From positions 1 to 35,151 of IMG/VR virus record IMGVR_UViG_3300025277_001374: a stretch of 35,151 bases of DNA; one strand, given 5' to 3'. This document shows positions 20,888-34,671 of this stretch, in pieces. Position numbers and translations under genes: made by a program. This DNA comes from a virus (lineage: Duplodnaviria > Caudoviricetes). The notes under the pieces are model-generated. The model was not told the DNA's origin and did no database searches. It was given only the letters and a program-made list of their open reading frames with translations. Every line of letters begins with the position of its first letter. Positions within the stretch are counted from its first letter, which is position 1.

Positions 20888-21325
20888 AACACCTACCTCC
20901 AAATCATTACTAAGCCAGTAGAGTGGCTCTCCGTTTAACACCACAAGATACCATAAATGCCTTCCCATGCAAACAAACTTATAGAAATGTTCTTCTCTTT
21001 TACGCATCGCATACTCCCAAGATCGCTTGCCAAGTGTCCTGTCATTACATCCGTTAATAGGGCAGTCCATGAAATAGAAAACACGATCCAGCTTCTTCCT
21101 GGTCTGATACAGCAGAGTTATTACGGCTCCGCTTACGCCCCTGTGTTTCGGGTTCGCTCCACGGTAGGGCAAATAGAATCTATCAGCGTAAGGAACGTGA
21201 CCTGTAAGTTTCTTCAAGGGAGGGATCACATATTCAGTCCACCCACATGTAATACAACTAAAGCCATCTAAATCTTTTTTTGCGAGTTTTTTACATCTCG
21301 GACAAATTTTCGATAACATTTGCAT
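20786..21325 (-). CDS. Zn-ribbon/Cys-rich protein with an in-frame basic C-terminal tail
   Basis: CPRC...CITCG, CPINGC and C..RH.W motifs; first long ORF of the virion operon. Confidence 0.6.
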   Translation of the reverse strand: MQMLSKICPRCKKLAKKDLDGFSCITCGWTEYVIPPLKKLTGHVPYADRFYLPYRGANPKHRGVSGAVITLLYQTRKKLDRVFYFMDCPINGCNDRTLGKRSWEYAMRKREEHFYKFVCMGRHLWYLVVLNGEPLYWLSNDLEVGVMPKVGKKRYKTVSGAKKAAKKTGKKLVMTRKKY

Positions 21326-21329
21326 CGCC

Positions 21330-21473
21330 CTATGGTAGCATGACGGCGCAAGGAGAGGTAATCAGATTACGGACCTGTCTCCGTTTCGACCACCTCCAGA
21401 AACGTCTGATCTGCACTAAACTGGATTTCTCCTTGCAACAGCACAGAACCCGTGCTAAACTAATCTTATTCAT
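21330..21473 (-). CDS. Possible 47-aa leader peptide upstream of the virion operon
   Basis: TTCAAACAATCC...CTAGGAGAATAGAAC-ATG; MNKISLARVLCCCKEKSSLVQIRRFWRWSKRRQVRNLITSPCAVMLP*; stop 4 nt before ATG 21325. May only be the antisense shadow of the sRNA. Confidence 0.3.
   Translation of the reverse strand: MNKISLARVLCCCKEKSSLVQIRRFWRWSKRRQVRNLITSPCAVMLP
21433..21461 (+). promoter_or_regulatory. Sigma70-type promoter for the putative sRNA
   Basis: TTGCAA-17 bp-TAAACT with extended -10 TGn; likely +1 near A21468. Confidence 0.65.
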
Positions 21474-21585
21474 GTTCTATTCTCCTAGTGTAAAACATGG
21501 ATTGTTTGAAGAGAAAAACCTGCTCGTATCCTTAAGATTATTTGGTCGTAATGTATAGGAACAACCACGGGCAGGTCTTTCTTTT
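21468..21585 (+). ncRNA. Putative multi-target antisense small RNA
   Basis: Upstream promoter; 5' hairpin with anti-SD loop UUCUCC; linker GGAUUGUUUGAA (21499-21510) complementary to three leaders; 3' stem 21518-21527/21567-21576 followed by a U-rich tail. Confidence 0.6.
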
Positions 21586-21717
21586 GTGATATACTCTCGA
21601 TCAAGGGTCGGGTACGCTTTTAATATCTCATTTGTTCTTAATCATTCTTTTGCAGATAACTACATGCATTCACCGGTTCACTCGCCCGACCCTCATTCAG
21701 ATACATCTGTTATCGAA

Positions 21718-21966
21718 TTATGAATTTGATCTTTCTTGTTTGATCTTTCTAGCCTCGTCTCTGGCTGATTGAATTTCAGCTTTAGACTGAACAAAACTTT
21801 CCAGGTAATCGATTAAGTCAGATTTCCTAACCCTCCGGTTCCCTCCGATCTTGAGACTTATCAATTCACCATCCAAAATTAAACTCCAAATTTTCGTCTT
21901 ACTCATGCCCGTGTATTCTTGAATCTCTCCTACGGTGAGAAGGTCAATTAGTGTGTCTGATACCAT
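21718..21966 (-). CDS. HTH_17/excisionase-like (MerR-type) DNA-binding protein
   Basis: Start moved to MVSDT (SD AAGGAGG); LLTVGEIQEYTGMSKTKIWSLI..GEL.SLKIG.NRRVRKSDL is the HTH_17 pattern. Confidence 0.8.
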   Translation of the reverse strand: MVSDTLIDLLTVGEIQEYTGMSKTKIWSLILDGELISLKIGGNRRVRKSDLIDYLESFVQSKAEIQSARDEARKIKQERSNS

Positions 21967-22001
21967 TTGGTTTTCCTCCTTATGGAAACTATTATGTTGA
22001 T

Positions 22002-22030
22002 ACACTAGCATCCATCCCATACAATGTGAA
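22002..22030 (-). promoter_or_regulatory. Leftward promoter for the HTH gene
   Basis: Minus strand TTCACA-17 bp-TAGTGT with TGn extension. Confidence 0.45.
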
Positions 22031-22070
22031 TGTATCGATATCTGATCACTAAAACTAAGTATCAGATACA
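22031..22070. promoter_or_regulatory. Operator-like GTATC/GATAC inverted repeats between divergent promoters
   Basis: GTATCAGATAC (22059-22069); TATCTGAT (22039)/ATCAGATA (22061); TGTATC (22031)/GATACA (22065). Confidence 0.5.
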
Positions 22071-22071
22071 C

Positions 22072-22100
22072 TTGACAACTCCCTTTTTTACAATTAAAAT
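22072..22100 (+). promoter_or_regulatory. Near-consensus sigma70 promoter
   Basis: TTGACA-17 bp-TAAAAT. Confidence 0.75.
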
Positions 22101-22118
22101 CAAAATCCCAAACACACT

Positions 22119-22262
22119 GTTACTTGTAACTAGTAACTAGTCTCAGTAACTAAGAAGTACCTAGTATGTAATAGTAACTGTAACTGTTACTAGTAACTAG
22201 TTACTGCTTCTGTCTACTTTCTTGAAACTTCCTACTGTAATTACAGGAACTGTTACTGTTAC
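22119..22262. repeat. Cluster of 11 GTAAC/GTTAC pentamers in both orientations
   Basis: Copies at 22119, 22126, 22133, 22146, 22174, 22180, 22186, 22193, 22200, 22252, 22258; palindromes GTTACTAGTAAC (22186) and AGTAACTAGTTACT (22192). Confidence 0.85.
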
Positions 22263-22741: not shown

Positions 22742-22770
22742 TTGTGTAAGTCTGCACGTTCTGGTAAAAT
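22742..22770 (+). promoter_or_regulatory. Early promoter 1
   Basis: TTGTGT-17 bp-TAAAAT with TGn; followed by a 10-bp hairpin (22779-22802), TTCAAACAATC and the SD. Confidence 0.65.
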
Positions 22771-22831
22771 TAAGTCATGGGATTGAAAATTGTTTCAGTC
22801 TCAAAAATTCAAACAATCGGGAGGATAGAGA

Positions 22832-23092
22832 ATGGATATTTCCACAGTAGACCAAGACACGAGGGAACTACGAATAGTTCGCACATTTGATGAGGCGTAT
22901 AACTACATTACGCACAGACTGCCGCCAGGATCATTTGTGTTGGCATTAGTAGAGAAAGATTATGACGGGGCAATCGCTGCAGCTGATAGCGTTTCAATTG
23001 AATTGCTACCTGAATTGATCGAGACAGTTGAGCGGGCTAAAGATCTTCATAGGTCCCAAATTAAGAACTATACTTTTGAGGTGATAGCATGA
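22832..23092 (+). CDS. Hypothetical early protein
   Basis: 86 aa, SD GGAGG. Confidence 0.7.
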   Translation: MDISTVDQDTRELRIVRTFDEAYNYITHRLPPGSFVLALVEKDYDGAIAAADSVSIELLPELIETVERAKDLHRSQIKNYTFEVIA

Positions 23093-23457
23093 TACGCACA
23101 TACGGACGGAACACGAAGCACACAAGGTTGACGCTCGGAGAATCGAAACAACTCCGAAAGCTTGCGCAAAATGTTGATACATTAGCCCAATTGACTGATA
23201 GCACCGGATTAGATGAAAAACAATTCCAAGCTGTATTGTTTGAATTAGGGCTAGATCTCACGAAAATGCTAACGCTCCTGGAAAACAAGATTGACGGTCA
23301 ATCTCTATCAGTTGCGGGTGTGTCTAGCGGTGATCTGAAATTACCCGAAGGTATGAAAAGTACTTATAATTCCTTCGAATGGGTAGATCAATCCAATTGG
23401 CAACACCTTCAAGTTTCAGAAATTGAATTCGACACAGAAAACGGAAATTCCTACTGA
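23089..23457 (+). CDS. Hypothetical early protein (stop codon inside the ribozyme core)
   Basis: 122 aa, SD GAGGTG, ATGA overlap. Confidence 0.7.
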   Translation: MIRTYGRNTKHTRLTLGESKQLRKLAQNVDTLAQLTDSTGLDEKQFQAVLFELGLDLTKMLTLLENKIDGQSLSVAGVSSGDLKLPEGMKSTYNSFEWVDQSNWQHLQVSEIEFDTENGNSY

Positions 23458-23505
23458 AGAGACTTAGATAGTCGAAACTAGGGGCGTAAGTCCCTAGTCT
23501 AGGAA
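23448..23505 (+). ncRNA. Type I hammerhead ribozyme
   Basis: Stem I TTCCTA/TAGGAA; core CTGAAGA (23454-23460); stem II GAC-ttagata-GTC; GAAA; stem III CTAGGGGC-GTAA-GTCCCTAG; GUC cleavage triplet, cut after C23499. Confidence 0.93.
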
Positions 23506-23550
23506 AGTTTCAAACAATCCTTAAAATCTTAAATCTAGGAGTGAAAGAAT

Positions 23551-24297
23551 ATGGTTACACTATTGAAAACGCGCGGGCTACGTCCCGAAATTAGAACGGC
23601 TAATACTGTCGCGATGCAGTTTAAAAGTGAGCTTGACGGTGAGTCAATTGTGGCGTTGTTTACGGGGCTACAGAAAAACTCACAGAATAAAAAACTAGGT
23701 AGCATGGTTACGGTATATATCCTGGTAGATAATGGCAAAACGCCCCAACAAAACGCGTCAAGCGGGGCGGATAAGTCTATATGCGGTGATTGTGCTTTAC
23801 GTAACAACATTTGCTACGTTGTTAAAATTCATGGTCCAGCAGCGGTGTATCGTGGGTACTTAAATGGCAAAAGTCCCGTTGTTAGTGAATCCGAATTAAT
23901 CGCCTTGTTGATTGATCGCAATTACTCAATCCGTTGGGGCGAATATGGTGACGTTGCAGCTTTACCGTTTGAGTTTGTTGATAACGTGATGAAAAAAACG
24001 GGATTACCTCACACGTCCTATAGTCACCAGTGGGATAATGAAAATTTTGATGATCGACATTTTAATTACTCGATGGCGTCAATTGACCACGTGAAAACGT
24101 TGCCATTACTCCAGGCGTTGCATGGTGACGATGTTCGTTACTATCGTATGGACGCGGACGGTGATAACTTGCTACCTGGTGAGATTCGTTGTCCTAATAA
24201 AGACAAGGACGGCAATACTCAAGTTCAATGTCGTGATTGCTTACTGTGTCAGGGGACCACCAAACAAGCTAAAAATATTGTTGAATTAATTATATAG
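23551..24297 (+). CDS. Gp88-like (radical-SAM-related) Cys-rich phage protein
   Basis: S.NKKLG, ICGDCALRNNICYV, IRWGEYGD, YSH.W, ASID and IRCP...CRDCLLC motifs. Confidence 0.65.
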   Translation: MVTLLKTRGLRPEIRTANTVAMQFKSELDGESIVALFTGLQKNSQNKKLGSMVTVYILVDNGKTPQQNASSGADKSICGDCALRNNICYVVKIHGPAAVYRGYLNGKSPVVSESELIALLIDRNYSIRWGEYGDVAALPFEFVDNVMKKTGLPHTSYSHQWDNENFDDRHFNYSMASIDHVKTLPLLQALHGDDVRYYRMDADGDNLLPGEIRCPNKDKDGNTQVQCRDCLLCQGTTKQAKNIVELII

Positions 24298-24339: not shown

Positions 24340-24372
24340 AGTGCTTAGTTACTTAGTGACTAGGCACTTTTT
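24340..24372 (+). terminator. Intrinsic terminator
   Basis: 13-bp stem AGTGCTTAGTTAC-tta-GTGACTAGGCACT (2 G-U) followed by a T-run. Confidence 0.8.
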
Positions 24373-24764: not shown

Positions 24765-24793
24765 TTGTAATTAGACATCACCTGTGCTAGTAT
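24765..24793 (+). promoter_or_regulatory. Early promoter 2
   Basis: TTGTAA-17 bp-TAGTAT with TGn; TTCAAACAATC at 24805; SD AAGGAGG. Confidence 0.65.
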
Positions 24794-24837
24794 ACACATA
24801 TAGATTCAAACAATCATAACCACAAGGAGGTTTAATC

Positions 24838-25176
24838 ATGAGGCAAGCTGACAAACTGCTCGGAGCCAATATTTTCCCTGACCCAGATATGGAAACATAT
24901 TTGAGCGAAATGGCTAAGCACTACGGAATAGAGGAAGACTCTATCCCAGAATGGCAACGTGTTGCTGATCTACCAGAGAACAAGCTGGCGGCAGAGACGT
25001 TAGATAAAATCGAGACATTGCTTAAGGCAGATCGATTTCCTTGCGAGACTTATGGCTGTAATGACCACACTCTAAGCTGTAAAGTTCCGGCAACTCACAC
25101 ACTAAAATGGGTTCTTCGTTTCATCCAAGGTTCTCACGAGCATGTATACGGAGAGATCAAAGAGGTGAGAGCATGA
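24838..25176 (+). CDS. Hypothetical protein
   Basis: 112 aa, SD AAGGAGGT. Confidence 0.7.
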   Translation: MRQADKLLGANIFPDPDMETYLSEMAKHYGIEEDSIPEWQRVADLPENKLAAETLDKIETLLKADRFPCETYGCNDHTLSCKVPATHTLKWVLRFIQGSHEHVYGEIKEVRA

Positions 25177-31841: not shown

Positions 31842-32328
31842 ATATAAAGTAAAGATTACCCGTGTCGTTGACGGTGACACAGTGGACGCTGAAGTTGACC
31901 TGGGCTTTGATACCTTTATCAAAGACAGGATCAGACTCATGGGCATAGATACTCCTGAGTCCAGAACCCGTAACAAGAAAGAGAAGGCACTTGGCTTGGC
32001 TGCCAAGGCTCGTCTGAAAGAAATCCTAAAGGAGAACAAGGGTAATATAATTCTACGCACCTCTAAGGAAGGAAAGGGAAAATTCGGACGGATACTTGGA
32101 GGACTACTTATTCTTGATAGAGAGAGCGGGCATCTGACTAGTATTAACCAGATGCTCGTAGATCAAGGATATGCGAGGTGGTACTTTGGCGGGAACAAAG
32201 CTGAACAAGGTGAGTGGACAAAAGAAGAAGGCGATTGTAACTGCGGTGGAAGGAAAGCACGACTGAGTCAATGTACTGGAACATGGTTTCGTTGGACACA
32301 AGACGGCTACGTAGAGATAGAGGAGTAG
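31834..32328 (+). CDS. Thermonuclease (SNase-like)
   Basis: MYEY...RVVDGDTVD..VDLGF, RIRLMGIDTPESRTR and KGKFGRILG. Confidence 0.9.
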   Translation: MYEYKVKITRVVDGDTVDAEVDLGFDTFIKDRIRLMGIDTPESRTRNKKEKALGLAAKARLKEILKENKGNIILRTSKEGKGKFGRILGGLLILDRESGHLTSINQMLVDQGYARWYFGGNKAEQGEWTKEEGDCNCGGRKARLSQCTGTWFRWTQDGYVEIEE

Positions 32329-32331
32329 ATT

Positions 32332-32532
32332 ATGGCAGGATTCCCAAAAAACCTTAAGTTTTATTCACTAACTGAAACTCAGGACATACTTGGAGTCGGT
32401 CGTTCAAAACTTTGGAAAATGCTGAATGTAGATCAGGTTATCCCTAGTTACAGAATTGGCAGAAAAGTGCGAGTAAAGCATGAAGACCTAGAAGAGTTCA
32501 TGAATTCATGCTTAAAAAAATCTAAGGAGTAG
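32332..32532 (+). CDS. HTH_17/excisionase-like DNA-binding protein
   Basis: YSLTETQDILGVGRSKLWKML...IPSYRIGRKVRVKHEDLEEF. Confidence 0.8.
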   Translation: MAGFPKNLKFYSLTETQDILGVGRSKLWKMLNVDQVIPSYRIGRKVRVKHEDLEEFMNSCLKKSKE

Positions 32533-32535
32533 ATT

Positions 32536-32994
32536 ATGGTAGTTAAAGAAAATTTATCAGCAGAGGAAATGGCAGAAGACTTAGTTGAGTTCTTAGCCAC
32601 GCAATTTAATGCAGGGTCAGGTGGCTGTACGTTTATAGAACTTCAGCGCAGATACGGCTCTCAAATGAAAGGAGATATTAGACTGGCTATTGACAATGCT
32701 GTGCTTTGGAGTGACCTTTCAGAAAAGTTTTGTGATGCGTTTGATAAGCTAGGAATCATGGATAAAGAGAGGGAACTAGGGTTAAAAGAAAAGAGGGCGC
32801 ACCTACATCCTGTCCAGACCCAATTAGGTGGAATCCCGTTACCTTATCTTCTTGAAGGAGTTAGTATGTCGTTGCCCATAGCCAAAACAACAAAAGATTA
32901 CAAGAGCGAAAAACTTCATTGGTTTCCCGTACTGTTTTACGGCAATAGCAAATGCCCTAAAGGGACTAAAGGGTGTCCAGAGATAGAGGAGTAG
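32536..32994 (+). CDS. Hypothetical protein
   Basis: 152 aa bounded by junction repeats. Confidence 0.7.
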   Translation: MVVKENLSAEEMAEDLVEFLATQFNAGSGGCTFIELQRRYGSQMKGDIRLAIDNAVLWSDLSEKFCDAFDKLGIMDKERELGLKEKRAHLHPVQTQLGGIPLPYLLEGVSMSLPIAKTTKDYKSEKLHWFPVLFYGNSKCPKGTKGCPEIEE

Positions 32995-32997
32995 ATC

Positions 32998-33720
32998 ATG
33001 CAAGAACGTATGAAAGAAGCCATGAAAGAAGCTAAGAAGGCTGTTGATAAAGAATTTATGGATGTTCATAAGGTTGAGGTATCAGGCAAAGAAGGAATGT
33101 TTGAAATCAGTGTACATATGGATATGAGTTCTGTTGATCCAAAGTATTATAATATAGCCCTTCCGATAGTGCCATGGGCTGAAGCGCATGACCATTTCGA
33201 TACAAAAGAGGTGGATGGCGTAGATATTATTCACCTTGAACACTCAACGCTTGCTGAGATTGCTCCTGATGCTCCGACAAAGTATCGCAGAGCCTTGGAG
33301 AAGATAGCATATTATATCAGAAGGGAAAATGGATACTCTTTCCCTCCTTACCATGTCGCAAAACCACAGGACGACGAAGGGAACAAAGATGCCATTTTCT
33401 TCTTATGGATAGGTAAAGATATTTACACTATCCAGAGTGATGCAAAAGCATTTATGACAGGTAGTTTTTCACGTGGACTTAGAGGAAGAGTCTACGGAGC
33501 ATGTGTCTTCAGACCGGCTCCAACAGAGGATAACAGGGATTCCGTAGCCAGCCACTACTTAGATTGGATATGGATTCATCCATACGCACGAGGCGAAGGA
33601 ATCACCCATGAGGCATGGTCTTACTTTGAGGAAAGGTTTGGTAAATTTGGAGTAACAACACCAGTAACCAAAGCGATGGTTGGATTCTTAACGAAGAGAG
33701 GTTGGTTAAAAGAGGAGTAG
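32998..33720 (+). CDS. GNAT-family acetyltransferase (Eco1/ESCO-like motif A)
   Basis: YGACVFR...LDWIWIHPYARGEGIT...TPVTKAMVGFL. Confidence 0.7.
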   Translation: MQERMKEAMKEAKKAVDKEFMDVHKVEVSGKEGMFEISVHMDMSSVDPKYYNIALPIVPWAEAHDHFDTKEVDGVDIIHLEHSTLAEIAPDAPTKYRRALEKIAYYIRRENGYSFPPYHVAKPQDDEGNKDAIFFLWIGKDIYTIQSDAKAFMTGSFSRGLRGRVYGACVFRPAPTEDNRDSVASHYLDWIWIHPYARGEGITHEAWSYFEERFGKFGVTTPVTKAMVGFLTKRGWLKEE

Positions 33721-33722
33721 AT

Positions 33723-33983
33723 ATGAAAGTAGTAGAAAGAACAATCCAAGTAAGTGATGTGTATGATAGTAAAAATAATTTAATGGAAGACAAAAACCCG
33801 TTACGATTACTTTATCTTGACCTATACGGAACTGTGAGAAATGCAAGGAATCCTAGAGTGGGTATGGACGCAACAAACACCATTTGCAATGCGCTGATAA
33901 AAAAGTATGGTCCGCTTTGGATAGATAAGGAATTATTAATAAAAATGGAAGACATGAAAAAAGGAGAAGTGGATTATGATTGA
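33723..33983 (+). CDS. Hypothetical protein
   Basis: Start moved to MKVVERT after the junction repeat. Confidence 0.65.
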   Translation: MKVVERTIQVSDVYDSKNNLMEDKNPLRLLYLDLYGTVRNARNPRVGMDATNTICNALIKKYGPLWIDKELLIKMEDMKKGEVDYD

Positions 33984-34305
33984 CTTAAAAGACAAGTATT
34001 TCCATATATATAAATGGAACGCAGAAGAAAAGAGGACAAAGATTAACAGACAAGGATGGGTTAGGGATTACGACCCTGAACAACACATCGCTCTTGTGCA
34101 TTTTTTTAATTTCCTTGATGGTGACCAATCTCCGCAACAATATCTTAAAAAGGTTACAGAGGACTGGGTATTTTATGATACGGATGACGAAATGAATGAG
34201 GCTTATCTGGAGAGCCAGAGACTGAGCAAGGATGACGAAGACTGGGCGAGAAAAACCAGAGAGTCTAGGAAAAAATGGATAGAAGAAAATGCGATAGAGG
34301 AGTAG
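33976..34305 (+). CDS. Hypothetical protein
   Basis: 109 aa, SD AAGGAG, ends IEE*. Confidence 0.7.
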   Translation: MIDLKDKYFHIYKWNAEEKRTKINRQGWVRDYDPEQHIALVHFFNFLDGDQSPQQYLKKVTEDWVFYDTDDEMNEAYLESQRLSKDDEDWARKTRESRKKWIEENAIEE

Positions 34306-34308
34306 ATT

Positions 34309-34488
34309 ATGCCAACACGAAATGAACTAGCAACTCAAGATGCAGAATTTGATACTGCACCGTCTATAGAAGATTCACTAATGGAAATGGAAGAAGGGGA
34401 TATCTTATTGTGGCGTGAACTTAAAGCAATAAAATATGTCTTGGCAGACATTTCAACGCATCTATCAAAGATAGCTGACAAGGAGTAG
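34309..34488 (+). CDS. 59-aa hypothetical acidic protein
   Basis: Below the track cutoff. MPTRNELATQDAEFD...LSKIADKE*, bounded by junction repeats. Confidence 0.7.
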   Translation: MPTRNELATQDAEFDTAPSIEDSLMEMEEGDILLWRELKAIKYVLADISTHLSKIADKE

Positions 34489-34491
34489 ATT

Positions 34492-34671
34492 ATGCAAATA
34501 GGAAAGCTAAGACCACAGATACTAACCGCCATCCTGTGTGCGACTATATTCAGTATAGTGACCGTAGTAGTGGGATTGCAGATGGGAGCTATAGAAGTCA
34601 TCACCGCAATTATCGGTGGAATCTTTGGCTTCTTAGGTGGCGTGTCGCTCAAGGTTCTTGAGAACGAGTAA
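34492..34671 (+). CDS. 59-aa two-TM membrane protein (holin-like topology)
   Basis: MQIGKLRPQILTAILCATIFSIVTVVVGLQMGAIEVITAIIGGIFGFLGGVSLKVLENE*. Confidence 0.7.
   Translation: MQIGKLRPQILTAILCATIFSIVTVVVGLQMGAIEVITAIIGGIFGFLGGVSLKVLENE

Follow-up and report, generated by a model that had tools for sequence, protein, structure and literature searches.

A predicted family of small RNA genes that co-evolve with the ribosome-binding sites of early genes in an uncultured marine phage group

How might a phage without a recognizable CI-like repressor turn down its early genes? This question is raised by a linear virus genome of 35,151 nt (completeness 90%), the whole of which was analyzed and is referred to here as the window. 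The window belongs to a tailed phage. Its capsid, portal, and terminase genes occupy the minus strand up to 21325, and the plus strand from 22832 carries small early genes, followed by genes for an exonuclease, an AAA_25 ATPase, RusA, and a nuclease. Pfam and PHROG scans of the 45 window proteins identified two HTH_17 genes and, in agreement with the initial annotation of this DNA, no CI-like repressor. A CI-like Pfam family was also not found among 150/157 listed proteins of relatives. Neither an integrase nor a partition family turned up in these scans, whether in the window or among the listed proteins, which come from mostly incomplete and partly scanned records; an antirepressor family was also not found in the window or relatives. 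The initial annotation proposed that a master antisense RNA silences translation at all early entry points.

Relatives of the window were gathered with the terminases, a 179-aa protein, and DNA patterns; G030 and other pattern matches that lacked the conserved RNA described below as element A were chance matches and were excluded. No cultured relative was found in the phage collection searched, where the best terminase identity was below 30%, and the 179-aa protein had no usable atlas match (best 0.81). A terminase scan of GTDB genomes with a single protein gave no match, whereas an alignment-based scan did find matches. All 16 genome records with terminase relatives (identity 50–56%) are Chloroflexota, and 15 of them are Dehalococcoidia, suggesting that Dehalococcoidia are the likely hosts of this phage group. 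One cluster member labelled Pacearchaeota was set aside as host evidence against these 16 records. Many of the 16 relatives (L200–L215) sit inside large chromosomes.

The predicted small RNA (sRNA), also called unit B, occupies 21468..21586 on the plus strand and is composed of a 5′ hairpin, a single-stranded linker, and a long terminator hairpin with a U tail. Its putative promoter (21433..21461, +) has a -35 element TTGCAA, 17 nt, and an extended -10 element TGcTAAACT, and relatives carry TGnTATAAT/TGATACAAT at this position. A consensus scanner run on the window called neither this promoter nor the terminator. The intrinsic terminator (21509..21586, +) appears bidirectional because an A-run precedes its hairpin, and a U-G pair of its stem in the window is a U-A pair in L139 and L141. 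The region 21468–21586 folds at -36.3 kcal/mol (z=-5.0), and none of 200 shuffles equaled this value. The minus strand folds almost equally well (z=-5.2), and the plus strand folded better in only 16 of 25 units; therefore, folding energy by itself leaves the strand of the sRNA undecided.

Two pairing elements can be recognized in the predicted RNA. Arm 1 (21471..21488, +) combines an anti-AUG and an anti-SD sequence (CAUG...UUCUCCUAG) and is the pairing element common to the whole family. Arm 2 (21499..21510, +), with the sequence GGATTGTTTGAA, is a clade-specific linker seed of 11–12 nt, in which only UGUUUG is free at rest (6 of 12 bases). The anti-SD motif UUCUCC had been described as exposed in an apical loop, which holds for CCU, the only fully open part; the rest of the motif is partly paired in the window copy. 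The mean unpaired probability of CUCC is 0.61 in the window versus about 0.9–1.0 in most relatives. At the sequence level, the locus has the features of a trans-acting loop-seed anti-SD sRNA (LhrC-like mode), namely its own promoter, an intrinsic terminator, and no conserved ORF, together with a CU-rich anti-SD in a hairpin loop (23/29 units, the window copy being only partly open) and several targets with co-evolving sites.

Every coordinate and pairing in the initial annotation is present in the sequence. The site complementary to the linker, TTCAAACAATC, occurs at 22808, 23509 (12/12), and 24805 and has no other plus-strand copy. The 12-bp duplex with 22819–22830 includes three G-U pairs, and CTAGGAG (23535–41), AGAATATG (23546–53), and AGGAGG/CATG before 24838 are found as described. 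Among the 70,282 11-mers of the window, only that at +21500 is complementary to 3 of the 48 start regions when the repeated leaders' own mirror strands are excluded. Binding was evaluated by cofolding, as plain duplex energies that ignore accessibility were noisy. The first target leader (22742..22834, +) belongs to an 86-aa gene and consists of a promoter (22742–22770), a hairpin (22779–22802), a seed site (22808–22818), an SD, and an AUG; it cofolds with the sRNA at -18.0 kcal/mol versus a non-cognate mean of -6.4. The second (23477..23553, +) precedes a 248-aa gene (phrog_2554) and consists of a hairpin (23477–23498), a seed site (23509–23520), an SD, and an AUG (-18.1 kcal/mol versus a non-cognate mean of -5.2). 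The third (24765..24840, +) precedes a 112-aa gene, with a promoter (24765–24793), a seed site (24805–24815), an SD, and an AUG (-13.5 kcal/mol versus a non-cognate mean of -6.1, the best non-cognate RNA reaching -14.3). Among 27 plus-strand starts, these three genes gave the three best cofold energies, the next being -11.7 kcal/mol. When the 5′ part was shuffled around an unchanged anti-SD heptamer, the observed top-3 binding energy was reached in 4 of 300 cases.

Two of these targets open and close the operon 22832–24297, as its first and third genes, and this operon ends at a terminator (24340–24368); the other target is the first gene of the next operon, which sits behind its own promoter. 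The target start at 23551 is preceded by a hairpin and not by a promoter; for these reasons, the claim that all early entry points are silenced was overstated. The genes at 23089 and 25173 overlap the stops of their upstream genes. A sequence nearly identical to the seed, in the sRNA orientation, is located at 23233–23245 (+) inside a 122-aa ORF, and also in L010; it could be a coincidence of the coding sequence or could pair in cis with the leaders. Further along the plus strand (32316–34492), a leader of the AGGAGTAGAT type is common to six middle-gene starts, on which the sRNA gave -4.5 to -10.2 kcal/mol, no better than foreign RNAs.

The covariation between sRNA and targets that had been suggested as a check was found in the cognate advantage, in a swap of RNAs, and in two held-out genomes. 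Every RNA was cofolded with the start regions of every genome (8 genomes x 12 RNAs). On early genes, the top-3 advantage of the cognate RNA after double centring was -2.3 kcal/mol (p=0.0005), and -2.4 kcal/mol with one genome per clade (p=0.0014); these p-values are optimistic because the permutations treat the genomes as independent and the starts were picked by SD strength. Late genes, only 2–14 per genome, showed no cognate advantage (+0.05, p=0.54). The raw ranks of the cognate RNA among the 12 were 1, 1, 2, 1, 1, 4, 4, and 8 in the eight genomes, with G031 and G027 at 4 and G001 at 8; GC-rich RNAs such as that of G001 are probably under-scored because the cofold is blind to loop-loop kissing. 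Three genomes with only 4–5 plus-strand genes each (L036, L075, and L097) were omitted from this comparison; their raw cognate rank was 4 each, and an earlier run of ten genomes that included them gave p=0.0002. When RNAs were swapped over 47 orthologous gene pairs, the effect was modest: the cognate RNA was favoured in 25, disfavoured in 18, and neutral in 4 (p=0.025, with non-independent pairs).

The held-out genomes G032 and G033, which were collected later, both ranked first of 15 after centring, with raw ranks of 1/15 and 5/15, respectively. Their sRNA loops differ in one base flanking the anti-SD (GUUUCUCC vs GUUACUCC), and the leaders of two orthologous genes (85% and 91% identity) carry GGAGAAAC vs GGAGTAAC, which matches the swap in the sRNA. 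Among the leaders, the two octamers were counted at 3:1 for G032 and at 0:5 for G033 (Fisher p=0.048). No compensatory change was seen at the level of the 11-nt seed, because the seed was found only in the window's clade.

In relatives, element A is immediately followed by an extended -10 promoter with the same two-hairpin plan behind it, a hairpin and then a terminator, whose stems change freely. Promoter calls were obtained for 29 distinct units of relatives; 25 of these have CUCC or CCUCC within the first 40 nt, and in 23 the motif lies in an open hairpin loop. Outside these 29 units are three rows that lack a promoter call and L054, which was mis-anchored; L007/L008, L020, L075, and L079 were missed by the anchor and were observed in a separate comparison of units. 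Arm 1 is identical in L010, L137, L139, and L141, and the adjacent loop bases vary. All five changes that L141 shows within the first 51 nt of its sRNA lie outside both arms. The seed was found only in the window's clade (leaders of the window/G024, L010, and L141), so the pairing scheme of the initial annotation has to be divided: the anti-SD(/AUG) loop is a family-wide feature, and the seed is specific to one clade. L010 has four tagged leaders, one of them ahead of a gene absent from the window, and L141 carries the tag and a near-perfect complement of arm 1 ahead of an unrelated first gene. L010 and L141 keep both arms even though their first genes differ, and the sequence upstream diverges exactly at the seed edge; divergence in the leaders of orthologous genes also reaches right to this edge. 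A hairpin with a TAAACTGCTC-like 3′ arm ahead of early genes is common to several clades (G014, G020, G027, and G031).

The sRNA is missing in G005, G007, L072, and L077, where a small ORF is in place, and in L217 and L221, where nothing is in place; G018, L061, and L088 lack both the sRNA and element A. In L011, L020, and L079, the unit is present and the early anti-SD is absent. Judged from these genomes, the sRNA is dispensable within the phage group, because several clades lack the RNA or its anti-SD. One clade carries tandem arrays of 2–3 promoter-plus-sRNA units after element A; such arrays were observed in L223, L224, L225, L231, L232, and L075, and some of their units lack the anti-SD motif. 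In L069–L073 and L077, the place of the sRNA behind element A is taken by an SD and a small plus-strand ORF.

Taken together, the sequence comparisons indicate that 21468–21586 is a member of a real, conserved family of anti-RBS sRNA genes that co-evolves with the leaders, its transcript being predicted. The proposal of a separate plus-strand sRNA gene with predicted trans pairing over the SD/AUG of several of its own early genes is therefore supported by sequence. It is probable that the sRNA is transcribed, pairs in trans with the phage's own early messages, blocks their translation, and turns the early genes down.

Two structures flanking this unit, a conserved pseudoknot RNA upstream and a further sRNA unit downstream, had been overlooked. 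Element A is a double-pseudoknot RNA (21348..21436, +) located directly 5′ of the sRNA, with no terminator in between. Across 42 distinct rows, six helices with 24 pairs are paired in 92.5% of 998 cells, and two-sided change was seen in 21 of the 24 pairs. Four helices served to fit the alignment, and the two pseudoknot helices were left unfitted. Helices slid out of register were paired in only 35–48%. Unpaired bases, among them CUAA and the AA that follows the second helix, hardly vary. Element A is conserved more strongly than the sRNA and occurs even in clades without it. It had no Rfam match in three clades scanned to E<=10 and was not found at the 16 cellular (Chloroflexota) terminase loci. 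The HDV-like, twister, pistol, and hammerhead ribozymes were rejected as candidates, as its strand order is at odds with their topologies; a ribozyme or an aptamer are guesses at its identity.

A near-palindromic extended -10 box (21332..21341, both strands) points on the plus strand toward element A and on the minus strand toward a putative leaderless start, the ATG at 21325 (6 nt downstream), of the 179-aa/terS/terL operon. Its T-G-n-T-A-n-n-A-T columns are invariant in all 33 rows, and the minus-strand TG reading is present in 29 of 33. As an extended -10 can be read on both strands, the box suggests divergent promoters.

Unit C (21587..21692, +) lies downstream of the sRNA and has a promoter (21587–21595), a constant stem (21605-13/21684-92), and a variable interior. 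It exists in 10 distinct versions, with a constant GC stem and a swappable interior in the window, L010, L012, L041, L049, L050, L052, L053, L079, and L141. Unit C is swapped independently of unit B, as L141 combines a window-like B with an L012-like C, and NCCA follows the stem in L052, L053, and L079. On its own early leaders, unit C had no cognate advantage, and no target was found in its own genome. Its role as a second regulator of the early genes was rejected, as it had no cognate advantage. Beyond unit C, the HTH_17 gene at 21718–21966 (-) is part of an insert (21697–22070) between 9-bp direct repeats (21697 and 22062) that is absent in L010 and L141. The strongest sigma70-like promoter (11/12) is in 22072–22250 (+) and is directed into a TAGTAAC repeat tract, which is possibly an origin or a genome end. 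The contigs of many relatives stop a few hundred bases beyond the sRNA.

The same pairing may serve a purpose other than early shut-off. It could provide RNA-only immunity, in which the sRNA would be expressed during carriage or pseudolysogeny to silence the early genes of a resident or superinfecting sister phage. This would fit a host-type promoter that is independent of phage factors, the lack of a CI-like Pfam family among the 45 window and 150 relative proteins, the diversification of RNA/leader pairs among clades as in immunity groups, and the distant terminase relatives in Dehalococcoidia chromosomes. However, those chromosomal relatives are only 50–56% identical and lack element A, some clades have no sRNA, and the proteins scanned from the window and from the relatives' mostly incomplete, partly scanned records include no integrase or partition family; immunity is accordingly rated as unlikely. 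A generic mimic of the 16S tail, acting on host messages or any strong SD with only an incidental match to phage leaders, is rated as improbable. The plain CACCUCC loop of the GC-rich L036, L037, L049, L052, L078, L080, and L107, which resembles the 16S 3′ end, would suit such a mimic, as would the missing cognate advantage in G001 and the missing own-genome target of unit C. The cognate advantage, the base-level compensation with own leaders, and an 11-nt seed unrelated to the SD all argue against it.

The direction of the locus is also relevant, since the 11-mer may be a protein box (a DNA operator or boxA-like element) and the apparent sRNA the mirror strand of a fourth leader, serving a 47-aa ORF at 21473. 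On the minus strand, the 11-mer, AGGAG, and ATG are laid out as in the three leaders, in which case the complementarity would be automatic; the minus-strand fold equals that of the plus strand, and an HTH gene adjoins. Nevertheless, the 47-aa mirror ORF (21330..21473, -), which has no Pfam or PHROG match, was rejected as a gene and the mirror leader fails with it, because the ORF is not conserved: it is 15 aa in L139 and L141, yet their small terminase is 96–98% identical to that of the window, and elsewhere it is variable (5–49 aa) or absent. In addition, the anti-SD loop persists in many relatives that have no ATG following it, the promoter and U tail are oriented on the plus strand, and the mirror leader would sit just beyond the minus-strand side of the bidirectional-looking terminator. 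The HTH-operator reading was rejected, as L010 and L141 keep the 11-mer without the HTH insert. The protein box and mirror leader are consequently rated as very improbable. Even less probability is given to a cis antisense RNA against a late transcript crossing 21586–21468, comparable to lambda aQ or P22 sar. The position of the sRNA, just upstream of the late operon and on the other strand, would suit this, but the putative leaderless promoter of that operon (21340–21332) is downstream of the overlap, and covariation with distant early leaders would be unexplained.

An early shut-off that acts as delayed negative feedback is the most likely role of the sRNA from its sequence, and it is preferred over immunity, as neither an integrase nor a partition gene was found among the 45 window proteins and the 150 of 157 listed relative proteins. 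At the beginning of this proposed process, the host polymerase would transcribe the sRNA from 21468. The open CUCC loop would nucleate on the SD, after which the weak 5′ hairpin would unzip and arm 1 would cover the region from the SD to the AUG. In the window's clade, the free linker would also hold the 11-nt A/C-rich tag just 5′ of the SD; this tag would add selectivity, so that three messages (four in L010) are picked among all SD-bearing ones. Loading of the 30S subunit would thereby be blocked, and downstream coupled genes would also be silenced. Read-through from the two-way box, which would also start the late operon, may boost the sRNA. As a tentative and rather speculative extension, the whole locus may be an early-to-late switch of RNA alone: the two-way -10 box would drive the late operon leftwards and the double-pseudoknot RNA rightwards into a swappable array of anti-RBS sRNAs, re-tuned base by base to private early-leader tags, which would amount to a programmable code for shut-off and immunity that needs no repressor.

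Against Rfam, the window gave no match at the gathering score and only sub-threshold chance matches at E<=10; thus, the sRNA was assigned to no family. The C4 antisense RNA of P1/P7 pairs at two sites and is processed by RNase P. It resembles the sRNA as a phage RNA that represses phage genes via pairing, repression by the sRNA being predicted. C4 is catalogued as Rfam RF01695 in the available part of PMC2864571 and, in that of PMC8198154, is encoded in the c4-icd-ant operon under its control, with a role in lysogeny. In contrast, the sRNA has its own promoter and terminator and lies 1.2–3.3 kb from three separate targets. The suggested kinship with C4 is not membership, as the sRNA is a stand-alone unit with no RF01695 match, and no antirepressor, CI, or integrase family was found in the proteins scanned. 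The other proposed analogue, P4 CI, also controls phage genes by RNA alone, using two complementary sites; as outlined in the accessible portion of PMC4825925, it is processed from the regulated leader, pairs with the flanking seqA/seqC, and terminates transcription. The sRNA does not belong with P4 CI either: it is not encoded in the target operon, and its sites cover the SD/AUG of separate transcripts 1.2–3.3 kb away behind other promoters.

Closer in design are LhrC1-5 of Listeria monocytogenes, which, in the consulted sections of PMC5880928, combine a CU loop on the SD with a single-stranded second contact. However, LhrC are chromosomal stress sRNAs acting on host genes (PMC5880928, same sections), whereas the sRNA is phage-encoded, directed at phage leaders, and re-tuned per clade; membership in LhrC was rejected, as no sequence or Rfam match was found at the gathering score or E<=10. 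P22 sar, lambda OOP, and aQ are likewise phage RNAs that pair with phage mRNA and lower expression, sar by blocking translation initiation, but each has a single antisense target according to the available extracts of a 2025 review (PMC12197685), and the sRNA is trans-encoded with several imperfectly paired targets. The phage sRNAs covered in those extracts act on host genes or on a single antisense phage partner (PMC12197685). The literature search found no description of this locus, of a phage anti-RBS sRNA directed at several of the phage's own early genes, or of this phage group. The IMG/VR structured-RNA catalogue, to judge from the accessible part of its description (PMC10690425), may already contain element A or the sRNA.

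The locus also provides a double-pseudoknot RNA that is uncatalogued in Rfam, from phages that likely infect Dehalococcoidia, hosts for which the collection searched contains no cultured member of this phage group. G032 and G033 form a natural single-base compensatory pair and thus a ready-made experiment on specificity. If the proposed reading is true, the repressor of these phages would consist of RNA, in the form of a stand-alone sRNA with several targets that co-evolves with the phage's own early ribosome-binding sites, and it would allow a direct test of how phages without a CI-type protein turn their early genes down.
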